Assembly (NCBI GenBank): GCA_903854645.1
Contig: CAINWY010000125.1
Span: 1 to 39,190, forward strand
Source: an uncultured bacterium
GTDB lineage: Bacteria > Patescibacteriota > Minisyncoccia > Phycocordibacterales > UBA9973
Direction of reading: 5' to 3'
DNA: 39,190 nucleotides
This document shows, in pieces, positions 6,206-20,831 of this stretch; within the stretch, counting starts at the first letter, position 1; each line of letters opens with the position of its first letter. The notes below the pieces were generated by a model. That model saw nothing but the letters and a program-made list of their open reading frames with translations, made no database searches and was not told where the DNA came from. A program made the position numbers and the translations under genes.

Positions 6206-7055
6206 AAAGACGCTTTGCATTTAGAACTATCTGTTTTGCTACTTCCTCCTCATTTAAACACTTAATTTGAGCAATTTTAGCAACTATATCCTTAACATAT
6301 ACTGGTTCGTTTCGAAGCCCTCTATGGGGCACAGGCGCCACATAAGGACTATCCGTATCGGCAAGTATCATATCTATAGGAGTTTCTCTTATTACACTCT
6401 CATAGTCGCAAATTTCAGGTTTGGGCTTGTATGTTATAGGTCCTGCAAAAGATATATATATACCTATTTCTATAAACCTTTGCATATCTTCCACACTACC
6501 GGCAAAGAAATGGGAAACTCCCTTTGTCCCATAAATTTTGGAGTATTTTTTAATTAACTCATAAACATCAAAGTAAGCATTATTGATTTTATTATCTGGA
6601 TTATTGCGAACATGGAGCATAAGAGGCAAACCCAGTTCATTTGCAAGTTCTATCTGTCCCATGAATGCAACTTTTTGATTAGCAATCGTGTCATCGTTCA
6701 TATGATAATAATCAAGCCCACACTCACCAATACCTACTACCTTCCCCATTTTTGTCAATAATTTATATTTATCTTTATCAAAAATCTCTCCACGGGAAAC
6801 GAATTCTTTGCCTTCTTCTCCAAGTTCTGCTTCATCGTGATACGATGCATCTGTATGTATTGGATGAAGTCCTATCGTCGCATATACTCCCTCATAATCA
6901 TTCGTCATCTCTACTGCCTTCTTTGAAGTATCATACTGTGTACCAATATTTATAACCCAAGTATCATTGTCTAATGCACGAGAAATCACTTCATCTCGAT
7001 CTGCATCGAATGCCTTAAAGTTCACGTGTGAATGTATATCTATATATTTAGGCAT
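6195..7055 (-). CDS. tatD: TatD-family metal-dependent hydrolase (DNase)
   Basis: IDIHSHVNF, GLHPIH, GECGLDY, LHVRN and DTDSPY form the TatD metal-ligand pattern. Its start overlaps the metG stop (TAATG). Confidence 0.85.
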   Translation of the reverse strand: MPKYIDIHSHVNFKAFDADRDEVISRALDNDTWVINIGTQYDTSKKAVEMTNDYEGVYATIGLHPIHTDASYHDEAELGEEGKEFVSRGEIFDKDKYKLLTKMGKVVGIGECGLDYYHMNDDTIANQKVAFMGQIELANELGLPLMLHVRNNPDNKINNAYFDVYELIKKYSKIYGTKGVSHFFAGSVEDMQRFIEIGIYISFAGPITYKPKPEICDYESVIRETPIDMILADTDSPYVAPVPHRGLRNEPVYVKDIVAKIAQIKCLNEEEVAKQIVLNAKRLFDI

Positions 7056-8494
7056 TACTCTTTCCTTAAAAATAATGGATTTTCTGGCTTTTTGTTTTGC
7101 TTGATTAATTCTTGTATTTTTTCTGAAGTCTCTGGAAGCAGAGGAATTAACATTTGGGAAATCTCGTAAAGCATTAGAACGTTTTCTTTAATTAATTCTT
7201 TACCTTTATCAGGATCAACTTTTATTACTTTGAATGGCTCGGTCTCTTGTATCCTCTTGTCGAGTTCCCCTATTTTCTGCCAGACGAATTCTGTTGCTTT
7301 TTGAATATCAAAATTATCTAAATGATCAAAATATTCTAGAGGCATTTCTATTCCCTCTAAATCATATTTTCCATCAAGATATTTTTCTGACAATGTCAAA
7401 ACCCTAGAAGTGAGATTCCCTAATCCGTTTGCAAGACCTGAGTTATAAGCATCTTTGAATCGCTCTATAGTAAAAGGGCTATCTTCAAAGCTTCCTACTT
7501 CTCGAAGAAGAAAATATCGGAGCGCATCTGTTCCATACTCCTTCACTATATCTCTAGGGTCTACAGAATTACCTAGAGATTTTGACATTCTTATTCCACC
7601 ACTACCTGTTATGAATCCATTCACAATTATCTGGTGAGAATTTGGCAAATCTGCTGCAGCAAGCATTGCTTGCCACATTGCAGCCTGAAATCGAGTATTG
7701 TCCTTTCCGCAATACTGGGTTGGTGTACCATGCACCCAATACTTCTCAAAATTTTCATTATTGTTCGGCCAGCCAAGTGTAGATATATAATTTACAAGTG
7801 CATCAAACCATACATACATCACTTGCTCACTATCTCCTGGAACTTCGATACCCCATGGCATCTTTTCCTTTAGACGTGATATAGAAAAGTCCTGCAGGCC
7901 ACCCTTTACAAAATTCCTGACTTCGTTTAATCGAAAATCGGGTACAACAAAATCAAGATGTTCATCATAGAATTTCAAAAGCCTGTCTCCAAAAGAAGAA
8001 TACTTAAAAAAGTAATTCTCTTCATTTATGAGTTTTAACTCCATGCCAGGATGAAATGGGCAGGCACCATCTACAAGCTCGCTGTCTGTCTTCTCGCTTT
8101 CGCAGCCTATACAATACTTTGCTTCATATTGCTTCTTGTAAATATAACCATTATCCTTTACTCTCTTCCAGAATTCTTGAACTGCCTTTATGTGGCTCTC
8201 GTCTGTGGTACGAATAAAGTGAATATTATCAAGTATACCAAATATTCGAAGTTGCTCTTTGAATGTTTCAAAGCCTTGATCCACAAAATCCTGCACATCT
8301 AAACCTTTTTCTATCGCTTTATCATAAATTTTTATTCCATGTTCATCGGTTCCAGTATTAAAATAAACATCAAAATCTAAATGCTTTTTATATCTTGCTA
8401 TGGTATCTGCTCGGACAAATTCTAAAGCATGCCCCATATGAAGTGGTGCGTTTACATAAGGTAGAGTAGTAGTGAGATATAAAGTCTTGGACAT
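7055..8494 (-). CDS. metG: Methionine--tRNA ligase, short form
   Basis: HIGH-type motif LHMGHALE, KMSKS-type motif RMSKSLGN, and a Cys knuckle CIGCES..CPFH. At 479 aa it has no C-terminal tRNA-binding appendix. Confidence 0.9.
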   Translation of the reverse strand: MSKTLYLTTTLPYVNAPLHMGHALEFVRADTIARYKKHLDFDVYFNTGTDEHGIKIYDKAIEKGLDVQDFVDQGFETFKEQLRIFGILDNIHFIRTTDESHIKAVQEFWKRVKDNGYIYKKQYEAKYCIGCESEKTDSELVDGACPFHPGMELKLINEENYFFKYSSFGDRLLKFYDEHLDFVVPDFRLNEVRNFVKGGLQDFSISRLKEKMPWGIEVPGDSEQVMYVWFDALVNYISTLGWPNNNENFEKYWVHGTPTQYCGKDNTRFQAAMWQAMLAAADLPNSHQIIVNGFITGSGGIRMSKSLGNSVDPRDIVKEYGTDALRYFLLREVGSFEDSPFTIERFKDAYNSGLANGLGNLTSRVLTLSEKYLDGKYDLEGIEMPLEYFDHLDNFDIQKATEFVWQKIGELDKRIQETEPFKVIKVDPDKGKELIKENVLMLYEISQMLIPLLPETSEKIQELIKQNKKPENPLFLRKE

Positions 8495-10964: not shown

Positions 10965-12260
10965 TTAATTCATCCTCTCTTTTATATAATCTATTATGTC
11001 TACCTTCTTTATTCTTTCTTGGACTCCTGTATCACGATCACGTATTGTGACTGTATCATCTGTAAGAGTATCAAAGTCTACAACTATGCACCAAGGTGTA
11101 CCTATCTCATCTTGCCTTCTGTAACGCTTTCCGATGTTTCCATTATCATCCCACATGACACGTCCAAATTCATCTTTTAATGTGCGATAAAGTATATGCG
11201 CATAATCGCGAAGTTCAGGCTTATTTTTCAATAGTGGGGAAACTGCACATACGACAGGAGCTACGGACGGCTTAAATGCTAAATATGGTCTCGTCTCGAT
11301 ACCTCCATTGTCTTCTGTATAAGCACTGAGCATAAGAGCCAATACAGTCCTATCTACTCCAAAGGTGGGCTCTATAACGTGAGGTACTATCTTGCTACTG
11401 GTTTCCTCGTCTTGATAAATAAGATTATGGCTCTTTAAGTCAAAATCCGTTCTATATGCAAGCCCGTAAAGTTCCTTCAATCCAAATGGAAAGTCAAACT
11501 CGAAATCAATAGTCCTCTTGGAGTAGTGGGCCAAATCTTCCTTCTCTACCTCGAGCTCATGAACCTTATTCATATCTATACCCATACCCTCCATCCACGC
11601 AAGCATTTCATCCTTCCAATATTCAAAATATTTTTCCCAATCTTCGTCTTTTATAAAATATTCAATCTCCATTTGTTCAAACTCCCTTACGCGAAAAATA
11701 AAATCCCTCGGAGTAATTTCATTCCTAAATGCTTTTCCAATTTGTGCCATACCAAAAGGTAGTTTTGGGTGAAAAGAATCTATTATGTTTTTGAAATTTA
11801 CAAACATACCTTGCGCTGTCTCAGGACGAAGATACACGGTAGAAGAAGAATCTTCAACTGCACCAATTTGGGTCTTGAACATGCCATTAAATTTACGTGA
11901 CAAACCTGTGTCACCACCACACTCATCACACTTACCTTTTTCTTTTAGGTGATCCTCGCGAAATCTCTTATGACATTTACCACATTCAACAAGCGCTTCG
12001 GTAAAAGTATCTACATGCCCTGATGCTTGCCATACAGCACTATTCATAAGAATAGCAGCGTCTACTCCATACATATCAACTCTTCCATCTACAAATTTCT
12101 TCCACCAAAGAGTTTTGATATTATTTTTTAATGCCACTCCTAGTGGCCCGTAATCAAATGTCCCTGCAAGTCCTCCATATATTTCAGAGCCAGGGTAAAT
12201 AAAACCTCTCCTTTTACAAAGCGATGTAATCTTCTCCATTAATTTTTCATCTTTTTCCAT
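10965..12260 (-). CDS. glyQS: Glycine--tRNA ligase (homodimeric class II type)
   Basis: RGFIYPGSEIYGGLAGTFDYGPLG, FRNEITPRDFIFR and FGVDR motifs, plus a C-terminal anticodon-binding domain. Confidence 0.9.
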   Translation of the reverse strand: MEKDEKLMEKITSLCKRRGFIYPGSEIYGGLAGTFDYGPLGVALKNNIKTLWWKKFVDGRVDMYGVDAAILMNSAVWQASGHVDTFTEALVECGKCHKRFREDHLKEKGKCDECGGDTGLSRKFNGMFKTQIGAVEDSSSTVYLRPETAQGMFVNFKNIIDSFHPKLPFGMAQIGKAFRNEITPRDFIFRVREFEQMEIEYFIKDEDWEKYFEYWKDEMLAWMEGMGIDMNKVHELEVEKEDLAHYSKRTIDFEFDFPFGLKELYGLAYRTDFDLKSHNLIYQDEETSSKIVPHVIEPTFGVDRTVLALMLSAYTEDNGGIETRPYLAFKPSVAPVVCAVSPLLKNKPELRDYAHILYRTLKDEFGRVMWDDNGNIGKRYRRQDEIGTPWCIVVDFDTLTDDTVTIRDRDTGVQERIKKVDIIDYIKERMN

Positions 12261-12282: not shown

Positions 12283-14157
12283 TTACTGTATAACACGTTC
12301 GAGGCCATTCTTAAAGTTTGGATCATTTGATAATAACGTATTTATAGACATATACCTACTATTAATTACTGTGCCCGAGAATACATCTGTGCCTACTAGA
12401 TAGAGATCTTTCATGAGTTGAGGGGTGCTATCTACTTGTGATATCGAAGGAGTGAGAGCTATTGTAAATACTGCTTCACGATTATTTACGCCACCCGTAT
12501 TAGCTTTTACAGATCCTATATCCCAAATAACTTCTCTAGTTACATCATTATAAGTTACATTTTCTCGAGATGATATACTGCCAACCCATTTTACATAAAC
12601 AGGTAAAACTGACCGCGCCACAGCTCCCGATATTGCATTTGTAGAATTACGTAAAGTCCAAGTAACATTATATTTTGTTTCAACTTCTGCTTTTGGTGGA
12701 AATGCCCCTTCCTTATATGTTGCACTAGAAACAATTTGTAAATCTGACAAGAATTTAACTACTTTCTTTGAGAAGTTATTTATATCTGTATATGTAGAAC
12801 CAAGCGACGGCTCTCTTCCCTTAATACTTACATCTATAGAAATTTGTGGATCAGCTATATTTGTTTTTAAATCCCTTGCCAATAGAGACTTCATGCTAAA
12901 CGATACTACGCCTTTTACACCTGGCTCGATATTTGCTAAATCAGAACTTGAATTTTTGTCCCAAATTATTCGATTATTCAATGAATCAAAGAAGCCATCA
13001 GTAGGCTTAATCGACATTCTGTCCAAAACATTTCCACTTATATTTGCAATTATTTCTCCATCTGTAATTCTATTTGGTAAATTATTTGCCCAAGATATTC
13101 TTACGTTTATAGTATCACCCAGAACTGAAGTATTATCGACTAATATATTTGCTTCTATAAAAGGCTTGGTTATAAGAATGGAATGAAGAAGAGAATTATA
13201 AACTACATTTATAGTAGATTTATCAGAGAGTGTAGTTGTACCTGCATAGACATGGAAAACTTGCTGGTCTTTGTCCTCGCCAATAATCCTACCTTTTACA
13301 ACAACAGAGATTGGATTAGTTAGAGTCAAATCTTTCAAACTCCACATTGCATTACCAAAAGACGGCTCGGGTATCGAACTTTCATATATAAAATTATTAG
13401 GATATGTTACTTGCATTACTGCATCTCCACTTGGCAATGAGGTATTGAGTGTTGCCTTCACGGTAAAAGATACTGGCTGGTCAGATGTAACAGTATCTGG
13501 TCCATCAATAGTTAATGATAGTGGGGCTGAACTTATATTTACACTATAATTCTTTGCTTTGGTAAAAATAGCATTCGATCCCTGTGGATGATAATCGAAT
13601 GAAATTACAACACTTCGGTCTGATCTCTCATCTCCAAAAAGTACAACTTTGATATTCTTTGTAATGGTTTCTCCTGGTTTAATTGTACCTATATTTATGC
13701 GTGACAAGCGCACTACATCTGTCGGGTTGTCACTTGCTCCACTAGGATATGATACAAGAAGATTAGCAAGCTCAAGATTTGCCTTGTTATTATTTGTAAC
13801 TTCTATTTGAAGAGGTAATTCTTCTCCTCCTTTAGTAAAGGCGTTACCTATAACTGTTATGTCAATCTTGTCACTCGAAACTGATGAATCAACATTGTAA
13901 AACATATATACAGCGTAACCTAGGGCCATAAAGAAAAATATAATTGATGCTATAAAAAACTTTTTAAAAATTGATGTCTTTGGTTTTTTCATTGAACTCA
14001 AGGAATTATTGATCTCTTCATTTCTCCATTCAGGCTCTACTTTATGATTTATCTGGTGTAAAACTCCATCGCTATGTCTGTGTGTAACTGTATCTATAGG
14101 GTCATATAAATGACGCTTAATATCTTCAATTTTGTTTTGGTGTTCATTTTCTGACAT
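12283..14157 (-). CDS. Hypothetical bitopic membrane protein with a large beta-rich extracytoplasmic region
   Basis: Start set at ATG 14157 (MSENEHQNK), because the TTG at 14196 in the track lies inside the promoter/terminator region. The protein has a ~75-aa cytoplasmic head, one TM helix (FFIASIIFFFMALGYAVYMFY) and then ~530 aa rich in T/S/N/V with repeated beta-sandwich-like segments. I recognised no catalytic motif. Confidence 0.6.
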   Translation of the reverse strand: MSENEHQNKIEDIKRHLYDPIDTVTHRHSDGVLHQINHKVEPEWRNEEINNSLSSMKKPKTSIFKKFFIASIIFFFMALGYAVYMFYNVDSSVSSDKIDITVIGNAFTKGGEELPLQIEVTNNNKANLELANLLVSYPSGASDNPTDVVRLSRINIGTIKPGETITKNIKVVLFGDERSDRSVVISFDYHPQGSNAIFTKAKNYSVNISSAPLSLTIDGPDTVTSDQPVSFTVKATLNTSLPSGDAVMQVTYPNNFIYESSIPEPSFGNAMWSLKDLTLTNPISVVVKGRIIGEDKDQQVFHVYAGTTTLSDKSTINVVYNSLLHSILITKPFIEANILVDNTSVLGDTINVRISWANNLPNRITDGEIIANISGNVLDRMSIKPTDGFFDSLNNRIIWDKNSSSDLANIEPGVKGVVSFSMKSLLARDLKTNIADPQISIDVSIKGREPSLGSTYTDINNFSKKVVKFLSDLQIVSSATYKEGAFPPKAEVETKYNVTWTLRNSTNAISGAVARSVLPVYVKWVGSISSRENVTYNDVTREVIWDIGSVKANTGGVNNREAVFTIALTPSISQVDSTPQLMKDLYLVGTDVFSGTVINSRYMSINTLLSNDPNFKNGLERVIQ

Positions 14158-14164
14158 ATTTATT

Positions 14165-14170
14165 ATTATA
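14165..14170 (-). promoter_or_regulatory. -10 box TATAAT 7 nt upstream of the ATG at 14157
   Basis: Minus strand reads GGAG TATAAT AATAAAT ATG. It lies downstream of the recO terminator. Confidence 0.4.
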
Positions 14171-14201
14171 CTCCAATTTTTTAAAATTGTAATCAATTTA
14201 T

Positions 14202-15420: not shown

Positions 15421-18400
15421 CTATTTTACCACATTTACAATAAATACAAGTTCAGATATTTTTACTTCCACTCCATTATTTTCTTTAATTTTAGTGCCGT
15501 TTGCTCCAACTGCTTTCAATAAATCAGTTTTAAATTTATTTAGTAAATCTTCACCTTCTTTACTGGTTGAAATTTCAAGATTTATTATATCATTTGGATT
15601 TAACCCCATCTTCTTTCTCATATCTTGGATAGCACGAACTAGCTCACGGTAATTCCCTTCTTGTTTTAATTCTTCTGTAATATTTGTATCTAGTTCTACC
15701 TTTTTTTCTTCCCCCTCCATTATTTTAATTTCTTTTACATTCAACTCATCTTTAACTATTTCTTCATATTCTTTTCTTAATTCGTAATTCGTAATTATTA
15801 ATTCTTTTAGTGGTTGCCTTACTGGTATCCCTACTTTTTGTCTTGCTTGTAGGCCAAGAGTTACAATCTCTCGAACTTCTTTCATATCTGAAACAACTTT
15901 TTGGCTTGCCTCGTCGTAGCCTTGTGCGAAGACGGGCCAATCAACCAAGTGTATACTTTCTAAATCCTTATCATTCTTTAATTTCTGCCAGATGTCTTCA
16001 GACGCAAATGGCGCAAATGGAGCCATTATTTTTACCAATGTTTTTAACACATAGTATAAAGTTGCCTTAGCTTCTATATCTCCATCCTTCAGTCTTTCAC
16101 GAGACCTACGAACATACCAAGTAGAAAGATCGTCCATAAAGTCACGCATCCCGCGGACTGGCTCTAAAAGCTTATATACCTCTAGGCTATTTGTAGTAAG
16201 CAGAGTAAGTTGATGCAATCTTGCCAATATCCATAAATCTAAAACATTTTTACTTTCTATTTTAGATTCATCAGTTTCCAAGCTTTTATCTCTATACAAT
16301 TCGTAGAAAGCCAAAACATTATAAAGTAAATTGAAAACTTTATTATGAAGCTCACCCACTGTCTTCTCGTCAAAGTTCTTTGGTTCTCCTGGTTGATTCA
16401 CTCCATACATCCAAAGTCTCAAAGTATCTACTCCATACTTTTCAATCATACTTATAGGATCGACAACATTACCTACTGACTTACTCATCTTCTTTCCATT
16501 TGCATCTAGAAGAAGCCCAAGACAAATAACATTCTTGTAAGCTTTGCCTTTACCCATTAGTACTCCAACTGCGTGCAAAGTATAGAACCATCCACGAGTC
16601 TGATCCATCGCTTCACTTATAAAATCTGCGGGATACCCACCTCCCTTTTCTATCAAATCCTTATTTTCAAAAGGATAATGACTCTGCGAGAAAGGCATTG
16701 TACCTGAATCAAGCCATACATCCATAACTTCCTTCTCTCTTTTCAATTTTCCACCGCACTCACAAACCAAATCTATCTCATCTATAAAAGGCTTGTGTAA
16801 ATCTAGCTCAAAATTCTTGTTGTGTGGAAGCCTGCTAAAATTAACTTCTCTTATTTCAGCATTCTTTAAATATGAGGGAAAATGCAAATCTGTAGGTAGC
16901 GTTTCAAAACTAAAACCTTGTACAACATGATACAGTGCACTACTCTCGCCTGCATGCCCAACAAAAAGAATATTTTTGCCACTATATTTATTATCTGTAT
17001 CATAGATCATTTTACCAACACGGTATACAACCTGTGCGTAACTCTCTCCGTTAGGCAGAACCTCAAATGGATGATTCAGATAATCTTTACAATAATATTC
17101 TTCAAATGCATCTCTCGACTTTCCTTGAAAATCTGAGCTTACATCCCATTCCTTTTCTAGATCAGTGTATATGACATTCTCTAAAGGAAATCCCATATGT
17201 TCACAAATAATTCTTGTTGTCTCTCTAGTTCTTACGAGTGGTGATGCAATTATAATATCTATTTTCTCTTTAAAATGCTTTATGCTCTCTTTTACTTGCT
17301 CTATACCTTTTTCTGTCAGTTTACAATTAATTGAATCCTCCTCATTTAGTATTACCTCGCTCGTATTACAGACAGCTTCTCCGTGTCTTATTACCCAGTA
17401 TTTATTTTCAGATTTTTTTGTTCTTTTTTTCAAATCTTCTATACTCCCTACCACTTCTCTCTTCTCGCAAAGATCGCAAGTCCAAACTGGTAATGGAGTA
17501 CCCCAGTAACGCTCACGAGATATGGCCCAATCCTTTATCTCTTTTAGCCACTCTCCAAAACGCCCTTCCTTGATATATGAAGGCTCCCAATTTATACTTT
17601 TGTTCTCTTCTATCAACTCTTTCTTAATTTTTGGATCTGACATTTTTATATACCAAGAATCACGCGCATAGTAAATCAATGCTGTCTTACAACGCCAGCA
17701 ATGTGGATATGAGTGCTCGTACTTTTCCTTTTTAAATAGAAGTCCTCTATGCGCCAAATCTTTAATAATATCTACAGCGACATCTTCGTCGCGGACATTT
17801 CTACCTTCCAAGAATTCTGTACCTGTTAGAAACTTTCCATCTAGCCCCACCATATGATGCTTCGGCAAACCTATCTCATTACCCAAATTAAAGTCATCAA
17901 CTCCATACATGACAGCCGTATGTACAACACCTGTACCATCCTCTGTTGTAACAAAAGTGGCAGAATATACTTTAAATGCTTTTTCTAGTTTTGGTTTTTC
18001 AATTACTGAAATAGTACTTGATAGATAAGGGTACAATGGCTCATATTCTAAACCAACCAATTCTTTTCCTTTCATCTCTTCTACTATTTCATATGCACCT
18101 TCTATTATAGAGAGACGTGCTTTAGCGAGAATATAAAAAGCTCCATCTGCATTCATTTTTATTTTTACGTAAATAATTTTCTCTCCTACTGCAAGAGCAA
18201 CATTCCCGGGAAGTGTCCAAGGTGTTGTAGTCCATGCCAATATATAAGTATTCTCCTGCCCTTTTATTCTAAACTTTGCAGTTACAGATAAATCCTTCAC
18301 ATCTACATAACCTTGTGCAAGCTCGTGTGAGGATAGAGTCGTACCACAACGTGGACACCAAGGAACAACTTTATAATCTTTATAAAGTAATTTTTTATCA

Positions 18401-18897
18401 TTTACAGTTTTTATAACATTCCAAACAGATTCAATATAATGATTGTGATATGTAACATATGCATTCTTTTGGTCTACCCAATACCCTATACGTTCTGTAA
18501 ATTTCTCCCAGAGATCTGTATATTCCCAAACACTCTCTTTACATTCCTTATTGAACTTTTCGATTCCATATTCTTCGATAGCCTTCTTAGAAGTTAATCC
18601 CAACTTCTTCTCCACTTGGAGCTCCACAGGTAGCCCGTGTGTATCCCATCCACCCTTGCGAGCTACGTGATATCCTTTCATTGTTTTATATCGTGGAATA
18701 ACATCTTTGAAAGCACGCGCCTCTAGGTGGTGAATGCCAGGCTTACCATTGGCAGTAGGAGGTCCTTCATAGAAAACATATTCCCCTTTTGGTGAATCCT
18801 TCTCCAGACTCTTATCAAAAATCTTATTCTCTTTCCAGAATTTTAAAACTTCCTCCTCTCTTAATGCACTTTGTGATTTTTGATTTTTTTCTTCCAT
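15421..18897 (-). CDS. ileS: Isoleucine--tRNA ligase (type 2) carrying an inserted histidine-phosphatase domain
   Basis: HIGH-type motif PGIHHLEA, editing-domain motif WTTTPWTLPGN, KMSKS motif KKMSKSVGN, and a type-2 C-terminus. At 1158 aa it is about 200 aa longer than usual because of an internal insert. Confidence 0.95.
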   Translation of the reverse strand: MEEKNQKSQSALREEEVLKFWKENKIFDKSLEKDSPKGEYVFYEGPPTANGKPGIHHLEARAFKDVIPRYKTMKGYHVARKGGWDTHGLPVELQVEKKLGLTSKKAIEEYGIEKFNKECKESVWEYTDLWEKFTERIGYWVDQKNAYVTYHNHYIESVWNVIKTVNDKKLLYKDYKVVPWCPRCGTTLSSHELAQGYVDVKDLSVTAKFRIKGQENTYILAWTTTPWTLPGNVALAVGEKIIYVKIKMNADGAFYILAKARLSIIEGAYEIVEEMKGKELVGLEYEPLYPYLSSTISVIEKPKLEKAFKVYSATFVTTEDGTGVVHTAVMYGVDDFNLGNEIGLPKHHMVGLDGKFLTGTEFLEGRNVRDEDVAVDIIKDLAHRGLLFKKEKYEHSYPHCWRCKTALIYYARDSWYIKMSDPKIKKELIEENKSINWEPSYIKEGRFGEWLKEIKDWAISRERYWGTPLPVWTCDLCEKREVVGSIEDLKKRTKKSENKYWVIRHGEAVCNTSEVILNEEDSINCKLTEKGIEQVKESIKHFKEKIDIIIASPLVRTRETTRIICEHMGFPLENVIYTDLEKEWDVSSDFQGKSRDAFEEYYCKDYLNHPFEVLPNGESYAQVVYRVGKMIYDTDNKYSGKNILFVGHAGESSALYHVVQGFSFETLPTDLHFPSYLKNAEIREVNFSRLPHNKNFELDLHKPFIDEIDLVCECGGKLKREKEVMDVWLDSGTMPFSQSHYPFENKDLIEKGGGYPADFISEAMDQTRGWFYTLHAVGVLMGKGKAYKNVICLGLLLDANGKKMSKSVGNVVDPISMIEKYGVDTLRLWMYGVNQPGEPKNFDEKTVGELHNKVFNLLYNVLAFYELYRDKSLETDESKIESKNVLDLWILARLHQLTLLTTNSLEVYKLLEPVRGMRDFMDDLSTWYVRRSRERLKDGDIEAKATLYYVLKTLVKIMAPFAPFASEDIWQKLKNDKDLESIHLVDWPVFAQGYDEASQKVVSDMKEVREIVTLGLQARQKVGIPVRQPLKELIITNYELRKEYEEIVKDELNVKEIKIMEGEEKKVELDTNITEELKQEGNYRELVRAIQDMRKKMGLNPNDIINLEISTSKEGEDLLNKFKTDLLKAVGANGTKIKENNGVEVKISELVFIVNVVK
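16813..17415 (-). other. In-frame histidine-phosphatase (phosphoglycerate-mutase-like) domain inserted in ileS (about residues 495-695)
   Basis: YWVIRHGE (His505 at 17383-17385), ASPLVRTRET, and LFVGHAGES (His648 at 16954-16956). The insert is flanked by ordinary IleRS sequence: VWTCDLCEK..GSIEDL upstream and LDLHKPFIDEIDLVCECGGKL..DVWLDSG downstream. Confidence 0.7.
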
Positions 18898-18922: not shown

Positions 18923-18974
18923 AAAAAAACTCGTCCTTATACAACAATTATAATAATTGCTATACAAGGACGAG
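18923..18974 (-). terminator. Intrinsic terminator of the ileS T-box leader
   Basis: Minus strand: CUCGUCCUUGUAUA ..loop.. UAUAAGGACGAG followed by UUUUUUU (18923-18929). Confidence 0.8.
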
Positions 18975-19085
18975 CTTCTAATGAAACACGTGGTACCACC
19001 TCGTTTACTTCTCGTTTATAGGGTTCTACTTACCAATTAAGGCTTTCTTCCCAACACTCAGGAGTGATAACTCCTTCTTCGTATA
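18923..19085 (-). promoter_or_regulatory. T-box riboswitch (Ile specifier) controlling ileS
   Basis: Minus strand carries the T-box sequence AAACGAGGUGGUACCACGUG (19006-18987). It also has the short hairpin GGAG-UUAUCA-CUCC with AUC (19068-19066) followed by A, a Stem II-like GGG..AGUA..CCC element, and then the terminator. Confidence 0.8.
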
Positions 19086-19091
19086 AACTTA

Positions 19092-19121: not shown

Positions 19122-20831
19122 CTACATTCTCTCTGGGATTTCTATACCGAGGAGCCAGAGACCATTCTTCATTGTTTGATAAAATGCTTTTATAAGATTC
19201 AAATGATATAGGGCATTTTTGTTCTCTTCTTTTAATATTTGAGTATTGCCGTAGAAAGTATTAAAACTACTTGCAAGCTCTGTGAGGTATGTAGCTATAT
19301 GATGAGGCTCTAATTTCTCATATGCATGCTCTACTACTTCAGGGAATTGATAAATATACTTTTCCAGTTCTGTAACTTCTTCTGGTATATCCTTTTTGTC
19401 GTCAGTATTAAAGTCTTTTGCTTTATTCAAAATTGAATTGGCACGGACAGAAGTATACTGCAAATAGGGACCTGAATCCCCTTCGAAAGACACAGACTTC
19501 AAAGGATCATATATAATGTCACTTCCTAAAGAAGACTTGAGTATAGAGTATTTGAGAGCAGAAACCCCAACAACTTCAGAAATTTTATTTTTCTCTTCAT
19601 CTCCCATTTCTCTTTCCTTCATTTTCTCTAGGACCATATCCATAGAATCATGAAGTAGCGACTCACCTGTTATCACATTCCCTTTTCTTGAAGACATCTT
19701 CCCAGAGGCAAAACGCATCATACCGTGAGTGATATGGTTCATTCTACTCTCATAGTCTCCATGTATAAGTGAAATAGCCTTTTGGACCACCTTCATATAT
19801 TCTGCTTGCTCAGTAGCTGTGACTACTATAGATAAGTCCGGATTCTCTTTCTCAAACTTTGTCACAGTTAAACCTATCTCTTTTGTTTCGTAAGTCGGAA
19901 GTCCCTGAGAATTTATAAACACTCTAGTATGGAGCTTCTTGTCGTATTCTCCTCCGTGGAAAACTATTGCTCCATCTGATTCAGTAAAAACTTTTCCTAC
20001 ATTTTCTCTAACTATTTTTTCTCCTATTGGAGCCATAATACTTTCAAAAAAATAACATCCATCACTAAACTTTGTACCTAGAAGTTTATATATTTCTTCA
20101 AAGGCCTCCAGTGTAATAGCTCTACCCCAATCATAAATTTTGTTTACCTCTCCATCTGTTTTATCATAAACTTTTTTATTTATGACTTCTATTTCTTTTT
20201 TTATATTCTCGTCTGTGTCATAAAGATTACTACCTTCTGTATAACATTTGCCTATGTAATGGGCTTTCTCTCCTATAGACATACCATCACTTGGTAACCC
20301 CATTTTCATAATGCCATATATAGCCTTTGCTACATGAGGGCCTACATCACCTTGGTAATTCGCACGTACTGTTTTTGCTCCCGAGAATTCAACAATCCTA
20401 GAAATTGACTCTCCAATAGCGTTTGTCATGAGATGCCCTATATGGAAAGGCTTGAATGGATTCGGGTCTGTATACTCCACCATAATCTTCTTACCTGACA
20501 GTATTTGATTCTTCCCCCAGTTTTCTTTCTTGTTTAAAACTTCACCCACACTCTCAGTAAAAAATTCTCTAGATAAATAGAAATTTATAAATCCAGGACC
20601 AGCGGTCTCTACTTTTGAAATTTCATTTATTAAATTCTTCTCTAATTCTAGCTTTATTTTCTCTGCTAATTCTTTTGGATTAGTTTTTAAACTCTTAGCA
20701 CAAACCATCGCTACATTTGTAGAATAGTCTCCATTCTTAAAATCATCTGGGTGTTCAATAGAAAAATTACTCTCATCTATACTGAGATTTTTTAATGCTT
20801 CCTGTATTATTTTTTGTATTTTTTCCATCAT
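19122..20831 (-). CDS. argS: Arginine--tRNA ligase
   Basis: HIGH motif PFHIGHLM, KMSK-like motif MSSRKG, and a C-terminal anticodon-binding domain. An alternative ATG lies at 20828. Confidence 0.9.
   Translation of the reverse strand: MMEKIQKIIQEALKNLSIDESNFSIEHPDDFKNGDYSTNVAMVCAKSLKTNPKELAEKIKLELEKNLINEISKVETAGPGFINFYLSREFFTESVGEVLNKKENWGKNQILSGKKIMVEYTDPNPFKPFHIGHLMTNAIGESISRIVEFSGAKTVRANYQGDVGPHVAKAIYGIMKMGLPSDGMSIGEKAHYIGKCYTEGSNLYDTDENIKKEIEVINKKVYDKTDGEVNKIYDWGRAITLEAFEEIYKLLGTKFSDGCYFFESIMAPIGEKIVRENVGKVFTESDGAIVFHGGEYDKKLHTRVFINSQGLPTYETKEIGLTVTKFEKENPDLSIVVTATEQAEYMKVVQKAISLIHGDYESRMNHITHGMMRFASGKMSSRKGNVITGESLLHDSMDMVLEKMKEREMGDEEKNKISEVVGVSALKYSILKSSLGSDIIYDPLKSVSFEGDSGPYLQYTSVRANSILNKAKDFNTDDKKDIPEEVTELEKYIYQFPEVVEHAYEKLEPHHIATYLTELASSFNTFYGNTQILKEENKNALYHLNLIKAFYQTMKNGLWLLGIEIPERM

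Follow-up and report, generated by a model that had tools for sequence, protein, structure and literature searches.

A histidine-phosphatase-like domain nested in the zinc-knuckle loop of type-2 isoleucyl-tRNA synthetases from Patescibacteria

Why would an isoleucyl-tRNA synthetase (IleRS) carry what appears to be a second, unrelated enzyme in the middle of its catalytic core? This question is raised by the ileS gene on contig CAINWY010000125.1 (GenBank assembly GCA_903854645.1) of an uncultured member of the Patescibacteriota, which we analyzed as a single stretch of 39,190 nucleotides (nt), hereafter referred to as the window. A first-pass annotation made from the sequence alone had described a 1,158-amino-acid (aa) synthetase with an intact-looking histidine-phosphatase domain inside it, and regarded the arrangement as novel. 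Our comparisons indicate that this nested form is not rare but is the standard IleRS in a large part of the Paceibacteria/Patescibacteria, that the same phosphatase occurs elsewhere as a separate gene next to ileS, and that it has been exchanged as a cassette between synthetase backbones.

The nested domain occupies residues about 494–693 (the interval annotated initially, 16813–17415, corresponds to residues 495–695). Its conservation was assessed in two sets of homologs: the 120 best matches to the window protein in a collection of 5.8 billion proteins (close set), and the window protein together with 58 full-length proteins from retrieved ileS loci (diverse set, n = 59), in which identity of the insert to the window ranges from ~30% to 78%. 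The domain and its predicted active site comprise the following features:

16894–17397, minus strand: match to Pfam His_Phos_1 (PF00300), residues 501–668 (E = 6.3e-24; 85.2 bits versus a cut-off of 21.7)
17380–17388, minus strand: R504-H505-G506 (RHG), with H505 (codon 17383–17385) as the predicted phospho-accepting nucleophile; invariant in 120/120 close and 59/59 diverse homologs
17365–17367, minus strand: N511, phosphate-pocket asparagine (120/120 close; 58/59 diverse)
17230–17232, minus strand: R556 in S552-P-x-x-R556-x-x-x-T560, second phosphate-binding arginine (59/59)
17149–17151, minus strand: E583, predicted general acid (59/59)
16954–16956, minus strand: H648, second catalytic histidine in GH.G (59/59)

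Profile score, catalytic core and alpha/beta fold all place the insert in branch 1 of the histidine phosphatases. When modeled alone with AlphaFold2 (AF2), it yielded a predicted local distance difference test (pLDDT) score of 92.9 and a predicted template-modeling score (pTM) of 0.90, and Foldseek matched this model to many solved family members in the Protein Data Bank (PDB) with a probability of 1.00 and template-modeling (TM) scores of 0.65–0.73. The closest structures are the riboflavin-pathway phosphatase HFP (9mmh), Rv2419c, PspA, CobC, PhoE and Rv3214, at 18–24% identity. The full phosphatase signature read from the sequence initially was thus upheld by both profile and structure prediction, its two histidine codons were located exactly, and its catalytic positions align with those of the family. 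Four named subfamilies were tried and rejected based on curated cut-offs: the alpha-ribazole phosphatase CobC (TIGR03162; 60.3 versus 162.9), dPGM_arch (51 versus 225), PspA (42.5 versus 350) and SixA (26.1 versus 74.5). Because the insert reaches no curated equivalog cut-off, neither its subfamily nor its substrate can be assigned from profiles. Judged by its family, it is probably a self-contained and catalytically competent branch-1 histidine phosphatase resembling the small PhoE/CobC/PspA-like phosphomonoesterases. In an AF2 model of the full-length protein, the insert and the editing domain were predicted confidently, unlike the most conserved Rossmann segments.

Across the diverse set, R504, H505, G506, G531, S552, R556, E583 and H648 are invariant, and N511, E619 (alignment position 618) and R626 are retained in 58 of 59 sequences; among the 120 close homologs, none of the catalytic positions varies. 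Conservation is high in the core of the domain (0.58–0.79) and in the linkers that join it to the synthetase (0.72–0.74), and low in the cap (residues 584–617) and two loops (0.29–0.36). For pairs with unsaturated synonymous divergence (dS), the ratio of nonsynonymous to synonymous divergence (dN/dS) was 0.08–0.14 in the insert, indicating purifying selection.

The synthetase that surrounds the domain is the only isoleucine-charging enzyme observed in the window. Its main features are:

15421–18897, minus strand: ileS, type-2 IleRS with nested domain, 1,158 aa (open reading frame (ORF), TIGR00392, Pfam and PDB match)
17440–18897, minus strand: N-terminal part, residues 1–486, with the first Rossmann half, the connective peptide (CP) core, CP1 editing domain, CP2 and first half of CP3 (aligns to 8c8w 1–478)
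15421–16800, minus strand: C-terminal part, residues 700–1158 and stop codon, with the rest of CP3, the second Rossmann half and the anticodon-binding and type-2 C-terminal domains (aligns to 8c8w 482–1025)
18727–18738, minus strand: class I signature in the non-canonical form G54-I-H-H57 (GxHH), from sequence
16477–16491, minus strand: K803-MSKS807 (KMSKS), from sequence

The protein scored 861.4 bits against the TIGR00392 ileS profile (curated cut-off, 621.4) and contains the Pfam families tRNA-synt_1, Anticodon_1 and, at residues 1066–1156, DUF5915 (PF19302), which marks the type-2 C-terminal region. Its best PDB match was Priestia megaterium IleRS2 (8c8w, 853 bits), followed by Thermus thermophilus IleRS (1ILE, 788 bits), while type-1 Staphylococcus aureus IleRS1 (1ffy) reached only 311 bits. 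By C-terminal organization and PDB scores, the window enzyme is a type-2 IleRS. Both class I motifs are present, HIGH in its GIHH form and KMSKS (positions retained in 54–58 of 59 aligned insert-bearing IleRS), as are the editing motifs, and the enzyme therefore looks complete, with charging and editing activity predicted. The third position of the class I signature (residue 56) is histidine in 31 of the 59 insert-bearing proteins and glycine in 28, and these GIHH-type and canonical HYGH-type backbones alternate at the same locus among close relatives. This altered signature is documented to be functional in IleRS2, where G/AxHH is reported to confer mupirocin hyper-resistance (PMC10485003).

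Where the domain enters the synthetase can be read from the alignment to 8c8w, in which residues 1–493 of the window protein pair with chain positions 1–478 and residues 694–1099 with positions 482–892. Since the alignment resumes at 482 after 478, ~200 residues stand in for ~3, in agreement with the first description of ordinary IleRS sequence on both sides with only a few tens of residues normally between the two blocks. The alignment places the insertion site in the surface loop of the CP3 connective peptide. In T. thermophilus IleRS, the CP3 subdomain is reported to hold a zinc motif, and CP3 topology varies among the IleRS compared so far (PMC7191050). Two cysteine pairs flank the insert:

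17467–17478, minus strand: C474-x-x-C477, first half of the CP3 zinc knuckle (sequence and 1ILE alignment)
16756–16764, minus strand: C712-x-C714, second half of the CP3 zinc knuckle (sequence)

With the 1ILE offset, these map to about C461/C464 of the Thermus enzyme, so that a Thermus-type Cys4 arrangement (CxxC...CxC) is present at the homologous position, where metal binding is predicted. All four cysteines are kept in only 25 of the 59 insert-bearing homologs. The insert therefore splits the knuckle between its two cysteine pairs, as had been proposed from the sequence. It was also correctly described as being in frame and host-like in composition, with a GC content of 0.366–0.368 that equals that of the neighboring genes. 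The proposed size held in part: the protein does measure 1,158 aa, but its excess of about 200 aa over normal type-2 enzymes shrinks to ~160–190 aa relative to insert-less relatives from the candidate phyla radiation (CPR; 972–1,002 aa) and to ~125 aa relative to Bacillus-type IleRS2 (1,032 aa).

The architecture is abundant in public sequence data. All 120 proteins of the close set (64–100% identity; 1,140–1,220 aa) combine PF00300 with IleRS domains and carry the insert at the same site, and many of them are encoded on contigs longer than 100 kb. Searching 1.84 billion representatives of 50%-identity clusters with the insert alone returned 3,042 matches at E ≤ 1e-3; among the best 150 of these, at least 85 are full-length or fragmentary IleRS with the domain at the same position. 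A metagenome scan added 80 further loci with the same architecture, and a scan of a genome collection with a single query sequence added one (L001). By their source names, the homologs derive from Paceibacterota, Nomurabacteria, Campbellbacteria, Minisyncoccia, Staskawiczbacteria and the 'Patescibacteria group'. One insert-bearing IleRS on a 207-kb contig (P0206; MDI9325301.1) is labeled 'Alphaproteobacteria bacterium' by NCBI, indicating either that the bin was misassigned or that the architecture exists outside the Patescibacteria. Public records name such proteins only 'isoleucine--tRNA ligase' or 'class I tRNA ligase family protein', with automatic PF00300 matches.

Free-standing relatives of the domain offer an independent view of its association with IleRS. 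The nearest are proteins of 189–195 aa from Candidatus Staskawiczbacteria/Parcubacteria that are 27–37% identical to the insert (~30% for P0217), begin with ..NNKY.ILRHGEA and end with ..GELRE.. We inspected the loci of five distinct homologs of this kind (189–194 aa). In all five, the phosphatase gene lies between argS and ileS, with a gap to ileS of 2–5 nt in four cases and 98 nt in one. The partner ileS lacks the insert in four loci (972–1,002 aa); in the fifth, the ORF ends at the contig edge after 709 aa and its CP3 is unread. In the insert-less partner, CP3 is a short loop that has a Cys4 knuckle but lacks any remnant of the linkers. Wherever the contig reaches far enough, recO follows one or two genes downstream, and the window has the same order: argS, leader, ileS with nested domain, serine hydrolase, recO. 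Nested and free-standing copies were never found together at one locus, and no further His_Phos ORF occurs in the 39-kb window. A neighbor-joining tree, which was built without bootstrap and gives an indication only, places the inserts in a single clade with the free-standing CPR clade as its sister.

The split form (for example, P0305, P0291 and P0367) thus resembles the window in the N- and C-terminal ends of the phosphatase and in the argS...ileS...recO neighborhood, but differs in that the phosphatase is a separate polypeptide and its partner IleRS has a short CP3 without linkers. At the one split locus inspected in this respect, only ~51 nt separate argS from the phosphatase gene, which leaves no room for a leader of the type found in the window (see below). 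Adjacent phosphatase and ileS genes in Staskawiczbacteria are probably co-transcribed. Given the split loci, the shared neighborhood and the sister clades, phosphatase and IleRS form a conserved two-part module that occurs either split or nested.

Within the nested form, the insert and the synthetase that carries it have, by several comparisons, different histories. Over the 59 sequences, pairwise identities of the N- and C-terminal IleRS parts are strongly correlated (0.82), while those of the insert correlate poorly with either part (0.20 with N, 0.33 with C). Relative to the window, locus L001 shares 80% identity in RecO and 78% in the insert, but only 47% and 54% in the N- and C-terminal IleRS parts; L056 shows the reverse, with 80% in RecO, 87% and 77% in the two IleRS parts and 37% in the insert. 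The sharpest case is the pair L002 (GIHH backbone) and L003 (HYGH backbone), whose inserts share 89% nucleotide identity (dN 0.045; dS 0.54) while the flanks are 57–59% identical with saturated dS. L001 pairs a window-like insert with an L003-like backbone. Between L002 and L003, identity flips abruptly at codons about 487–490 and about 699–700, and together with the comparison between the window and L001 these breakpoints define the following unit:

16801–17439, minus strand: exchangeable cassette, residues about 487–699, consisting of N-terminal linker, His_Phos domain and C-terminal linker

The linkers of the cassette read LKK.TKKSxNKY on the N-terminal side and YLKNAEIRE..F..LPHN.N.ELD on the C-terminal side. 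Their consensus across backbones, S(I/L)EDLK.K.KKSGNKY and YLKNAEIRE..F.PLPHN.NYELD, coincides with the boundaries of exchange. Neighboring genes of L002 and L003 are less similar than the cassette (70% for RecO and 56% for a 637-aa ORF next to it), which argues that the cassette itself moved between lineages and not the backbone alone. The simplest mechanism would be homologous or micro-homologous recombination within the linkers, followed by selection for in-frame products. Such free exchange indicates that no co-adapted interface between domain and synthetase body is required. Neighboring genes are mosaic as well at the ileS loci (L001–L081; for example, L056 1–1588 and L008 717–2480). At L056, ArgRS is only 47% identical to that of the window, against 80% for RecO and 87% for the N-terminal part of IleRS. 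Together, these patterns suggest frequent replacement of aminoacyl-tRNA synthetase (aaRS) genes or gene segments in these populations.

The closest relatives of the domain are fused mainly to IleRS, including forms with two copies. In P0187, P0188 and P0247 (1,379–1,419 aa), a second His_Phos domain lies immediately N-terminal to Anticodon_1, and the 1,419-aa two-copy enzyme was found on contigs of up to 1.06 Mb. A further IleRS (P0219; 1,066 aa) has an IS200-like Y1 transposase segment in its N-terminal part, a His_Phos domain and a C-terminal GNAT, and could be either a real composite or an artifact of assembly or gene calling. Three other types of protein carry the domain (P0128, P0254, P0153 and P0402–P0404). 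One valyl-tRNA synthetase (ValRS) fragment contains four His_Phos domains, one of them right after the WWGHRIPVWY block at a site equivalent to CP3, and in one CCA-adding enzyme the domain is nested between the HD and C-terminal domains. In four clusters of TsaC (threonylcarbamoyl-AMP synthase), the domain is located at the C-terminus behind the same SGNKYF.MRH junction.

Upstream of ileS, the first-pass annotation had also proposed T-box control, and the leader contains the elements expected for it:

18923–19088, minus strand: reduced T-box leader of ileS (RF00230; 29 bits, E = 1.6e-4)
19060–19075, minus strand: specifier hairpin AGGAG-UUAUCA-CUCCU, with AUC at 19066–19068 followed by A, from sequence
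18989–19000, minus strand: T-box sequence GGUGGUACCACG, from sequence
18923–18976, minus strand: intrinsic terminator hairpin and U-run, from sequence

A scan of the window with Rfam at gathering thresholds gave no match, as the leader misses the RF00230 gathering score of 93. The leaders of relatives score higher against the same model (32–67 bits; E down to 3e-12) but still remain below it. Among 58 homologous leaders, 15 contain the exact T-box 12-mer GGUGGUACC[AG]CG, upstream of both backbone classes. In nine of these 15, a search found a specifier hairpin with AUC(A) whose stems covary in six different pairs; a stable fold (−27 to −44 kcal/mol) comes after the motif in all 15. The comparison with relatives supports the view that the ileS leader is a shortened T-box falling under the curated threshold, so that the proposed T-box control gains support despite the low Rfam scores. 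Like RF00230 members, the leader combines a T-box sequence, an AUC specifier plus purine in a small hairpin loop and a mutually exclusive terminator; unlike the model, the window leader is much shorter, and the scores of the window and its relatives are 29–67 bits versus 93. Because the terminator has a U-run, transcriptional rather than translational control is implied. Among known T-boxes, its closest counterparts are those of ileS with a shortened Stem I, of the actinobacterial type.

What, then, might the domain do? In the reading we prefer, and consider somewhat better than evenly balanced, the domain would act as an autonomous phosphohydrolase whose function is tied to tRNA charging, as part of the split or nested two-part module. 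From the family we infer that H505 would attack the phosphorus of a phosphomonoester or phosphoanhydride to form phospho-histidine, with the phosphate held by R504, N511, R556 and H648 and the leaving group protonated by E583. The domain would be kept at 1:1 stoichiometry and in proximity with tRNA charging, under the same T-box that senses isoleucine tRNA, and would serve to remove phosphate-bearing species that are met or made by class Ia charging and tRNA 3'-end enzymes. The leading candidate substrate would be a 2'- or 3'-terminal phosphate on tRNA, and the next pyrophosphate (PPi) or a nucleotide by-product. An autonomous hydrolase is the most likely form because the cassette swaps at its linkers between backbones that are ~47% identical. 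Each of the partners named above acts on tRNA or forms adenylates, and PPi is released by every one of them. Since conservation is confined to the phosphate pocket and the linkers, the phospho-substrate may be small and generic, or specificity may have diversified. We found no useful literature support for Patescibacteria that lack inorganic pyrophosphatase; the scanned ORFs of the window include no ppa gene, but a 39-kb stretch is too short for this absence to be informative.

Several observations weigh against coupling to tRNA charging. Structurally, the closest matches are small-molecule phosphatases that bear a cap subdomain rather than RNA- or protein-end phosphatases, and we know of no branch-1 histidine phosphatase that removes 3'-phosphates from tRNA or hydrolyzes inorganic pyrophosphate. 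The varied insertion loops and the presence of one to four copies speak against a precise geometry relative to the active site. Fusions to partners other than IleRS are rare (singletons for ValRS and the CCA-adding enzyme, four clusters for TsaC). CPR TsaC is itself fused most often to the O6-methylguanine-DNA methyltransferase Ogt (PF01035; Minisyncoccia/Paceibacterota matches), and further to TruB, GNAT, 2H cyclic phosphodiesterase (PF13563/PF07823), NUDIX and methylpurine glycosylase; because TsaC joins such seemingly unrelated domains, fusion in CPR need not signal functional coupling. Finally, the full-length AF2 model has a pTM of only 0.60, with pLDDT < 50 at residues 39–88, 127–151 and 731–812 of the Rossmann core, which probably results from a shallow, near-invariant alignment.

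These points bear on other explanations of the locus. It is possible, if doubtful, that the domain is a metabolic phosphatase that was once a neighbor of ileS, became fused to it and is kept for co-expression in a streamlined genome with no link to charging. The PhoE/CobC/PspA-like character of its nearest structures and profiles, its unconserved substrate-specifying cap, its variable insertion sites and copy number and the promiscuity of CPR fusions (TsaC with Ogt, TruB, NUDIX and GNAT) would all fit such an origin, but neighboring genes normally fuse end to end and not into an internal loop. The association has, moreover, lasted in two formats over IleRS backbones that are 35–50% identical, has been re-created through cassette exchange and recurs both in ValRS, at the CP3-equivalent site, and in another two tRNA enzymes, and none of the nested loci was found to have a second phosphatase copy nearby. 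A non-catalytic role, in which the domain stabilizes or extends CP3 or binds tRNA, for example in place of a lost zinc knuckle, is very improbable. Although 34 of the 59 insert-bearing IleRS lack the four zinc-binding cysteines and CP3 topology is known to differ among IleRS (PMC7191050), a scaffold would hardly explain catalytic residues that are invariant in 59/59 sequences (58/59 for N511) among inserts with 30–78% identity while cap and surface drift, nor a free-standing form, nor exchange between backbones without a co-adapted interface. An assembly chimera, an intein or another selfish insertion is scarcely credible. The insert is a discrete in-frame unit of ~640 nt with sharp exchange boundaries that ends in ...PHN, as might be expected of a mobile element. 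Mis-assembly was nevertheless rejected because identical junctions occur in hundreds of independent assemblies; an intein, because there is no intein/HINT or endonuclease Pfam match, the fold is His_Phos and H692-N693 are followed by K/E/D rather than C/S/T; and a transposon-like element, because the region 16700–17550 has no terminal direct or inverted repeats and its only ORF is the phosphatase itself. Its host-like composition argues in the same direction.

Conflict with competitors or hosts could provide another reason for keeping a phosphatase on a synthetase. We consider it quite unlikely that the domain is an antidote or repair module of an arms race, shielding IleRS or isoleucine tRNA from phosphate-dependent attack by a phosphorylated isoleucyl-adenylate mimic, a kinase toxin that targets IleRS or a toxin that phosphorylates or pyrophosphorylates the CCA end. 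As background, toxSAS toxins add pyrophosphate to the CCA end of tRNAs, kinases of the HipA type target aaRS for phosphorylation, and GNATs such as MccE detoxify aminoacyl-nucleotide antibiotics. Under this explanation, competitors or hosts would be the source of selection behind the reassortment of cassettes and backbones between lineages; the explanation would also accommodate the alternation at one locus of HxGH and GxHH backbones, the latter linked to mupirocin hyper-resistance, a copy number of one to four, the variable specificity regions, and the GNAT found in the NF040702 class of IleRS and, alongside His_Phos, in one IleRS. This support is wholly circumstantial, however: we know of no phosphorylated IleRS inhibitor, dN/dS over the whole domain (0.08–0.14) indicates purifying rather than diversifying selection, and no toxin or immunity genes were seen beside ileS. 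A related proposal, unlikely in our estimation, is that of an exchangeable protective or repair cassette that would take phosphate or pyrophosphate off the tRNA 3' end, the synthetase or an adenylate-mimic inhibitor. Pressure from competitors or hosts would drive its reassortment, through recombination from linker to linker, between IleRS backbones (those of the antibiotic-resistant GxHH type among them) and now and then into ValRS, the CCA-adding enzyme and TsaC. If true, it would be the first defense or repair domain built into an aaRS.

The surroundings of ileS have features of their own. Four aaRS genes lie within 14 kb on the minus strand: a MetRS-like gene (7055–8494), a class II synthetase with an HGTP anticodon domain (10965–12260), IleRS (15421–18897) and ArgRS (19122–20831). 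The 637-aa ORF that adjoins recO (12283–14196, minus strand) has no Pfam match; in all eight related loci checked, recO is followed by sequence that matches it, at 39–72% identity in the long matches. A 114-aa ORF (17165–17509, plus strand) that runs antisense to the insert, wholly within ileS, is most likely spurious.

The aaRS belong to the most thoroughly studied enzymes, and the domains known to have been added to them are editing, RNA-binding or protein-interaction modules. It is therefore surprising that the main IleRS of a large bacterial radiation should house a second, unrelated hydrolytic active site within its catalytic core. The initial claim of novelty needs to be divided. We found no description of an aaRS with a histidine-phosphatase domain in the open-access literature (PMC and bioRxiv), recent papers on IleRS evolution make no mention of a nested phosphatase, and no solved or described IleRS with such a domain was found; rarity was not borne out, and the abundance of these sequences in public databases marks an undescribed clade-wide variant rather than a unique oddity. 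Labels that read just 'class I tRNA ligase family protein' reveal a gap in annotation. The locus also represents a clean case of domain-level recombination, with breakpoints exactly at the linkers within an essential gene, and the three natural configurations (split, nested once and nested multiply) constitute a ready-made experimental series.

Compared with known type-2 IleRS (8C8U/8C8W and 1ILE), the window enzyme has all expected parts (Rossmann, CP1 editing, CP2/CP3, anticodon-binding and DUF5915); it shares the CP3 Cys4 knuckle with Thermus IleRS and the GxHH signature with the hyper-resistant IleRS2 class. It differs from them in that a foreign catalytic domain of ~200 residues replaces ~3 residues in the middle of CP3. 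The domain itself is like the phosphoserine phosphatase PspA (4IJ5), the Rv2419c phosphatase GpgP (4PZ9), CobC (6E4B/6NRU), PhoE (1H2E) and HFP (9MMH) in fold, in length (~190–210 aa) and in its RHG/N/SPxxR/E/GH residues, and unlike these small phosphatases in being only 18–24% identical, in being nested instead of free, and in having an unrelated and variable specificity cap. Two further families show related combinations. The RNase H/CobC-like phosphatase PRK07238 (Mycobacterium tuberculosis Rv2228c type), the second-best NCBIfam match of the insert (55.7 bits, far under the cut-off of 326), also places a CobC-like His_Phos domain on a nucleic-acid enzyme, although there the fusion is end to end and the partner is different. 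The GNAT-bearing isoleucine--tRNA ligases of NF040702, of which the window protein is not a member (306 bits versus a cut-off of 1,999), have another accessory domain at another position, but they provide a precedent for an IleRS with an extra internal catalytic domain.

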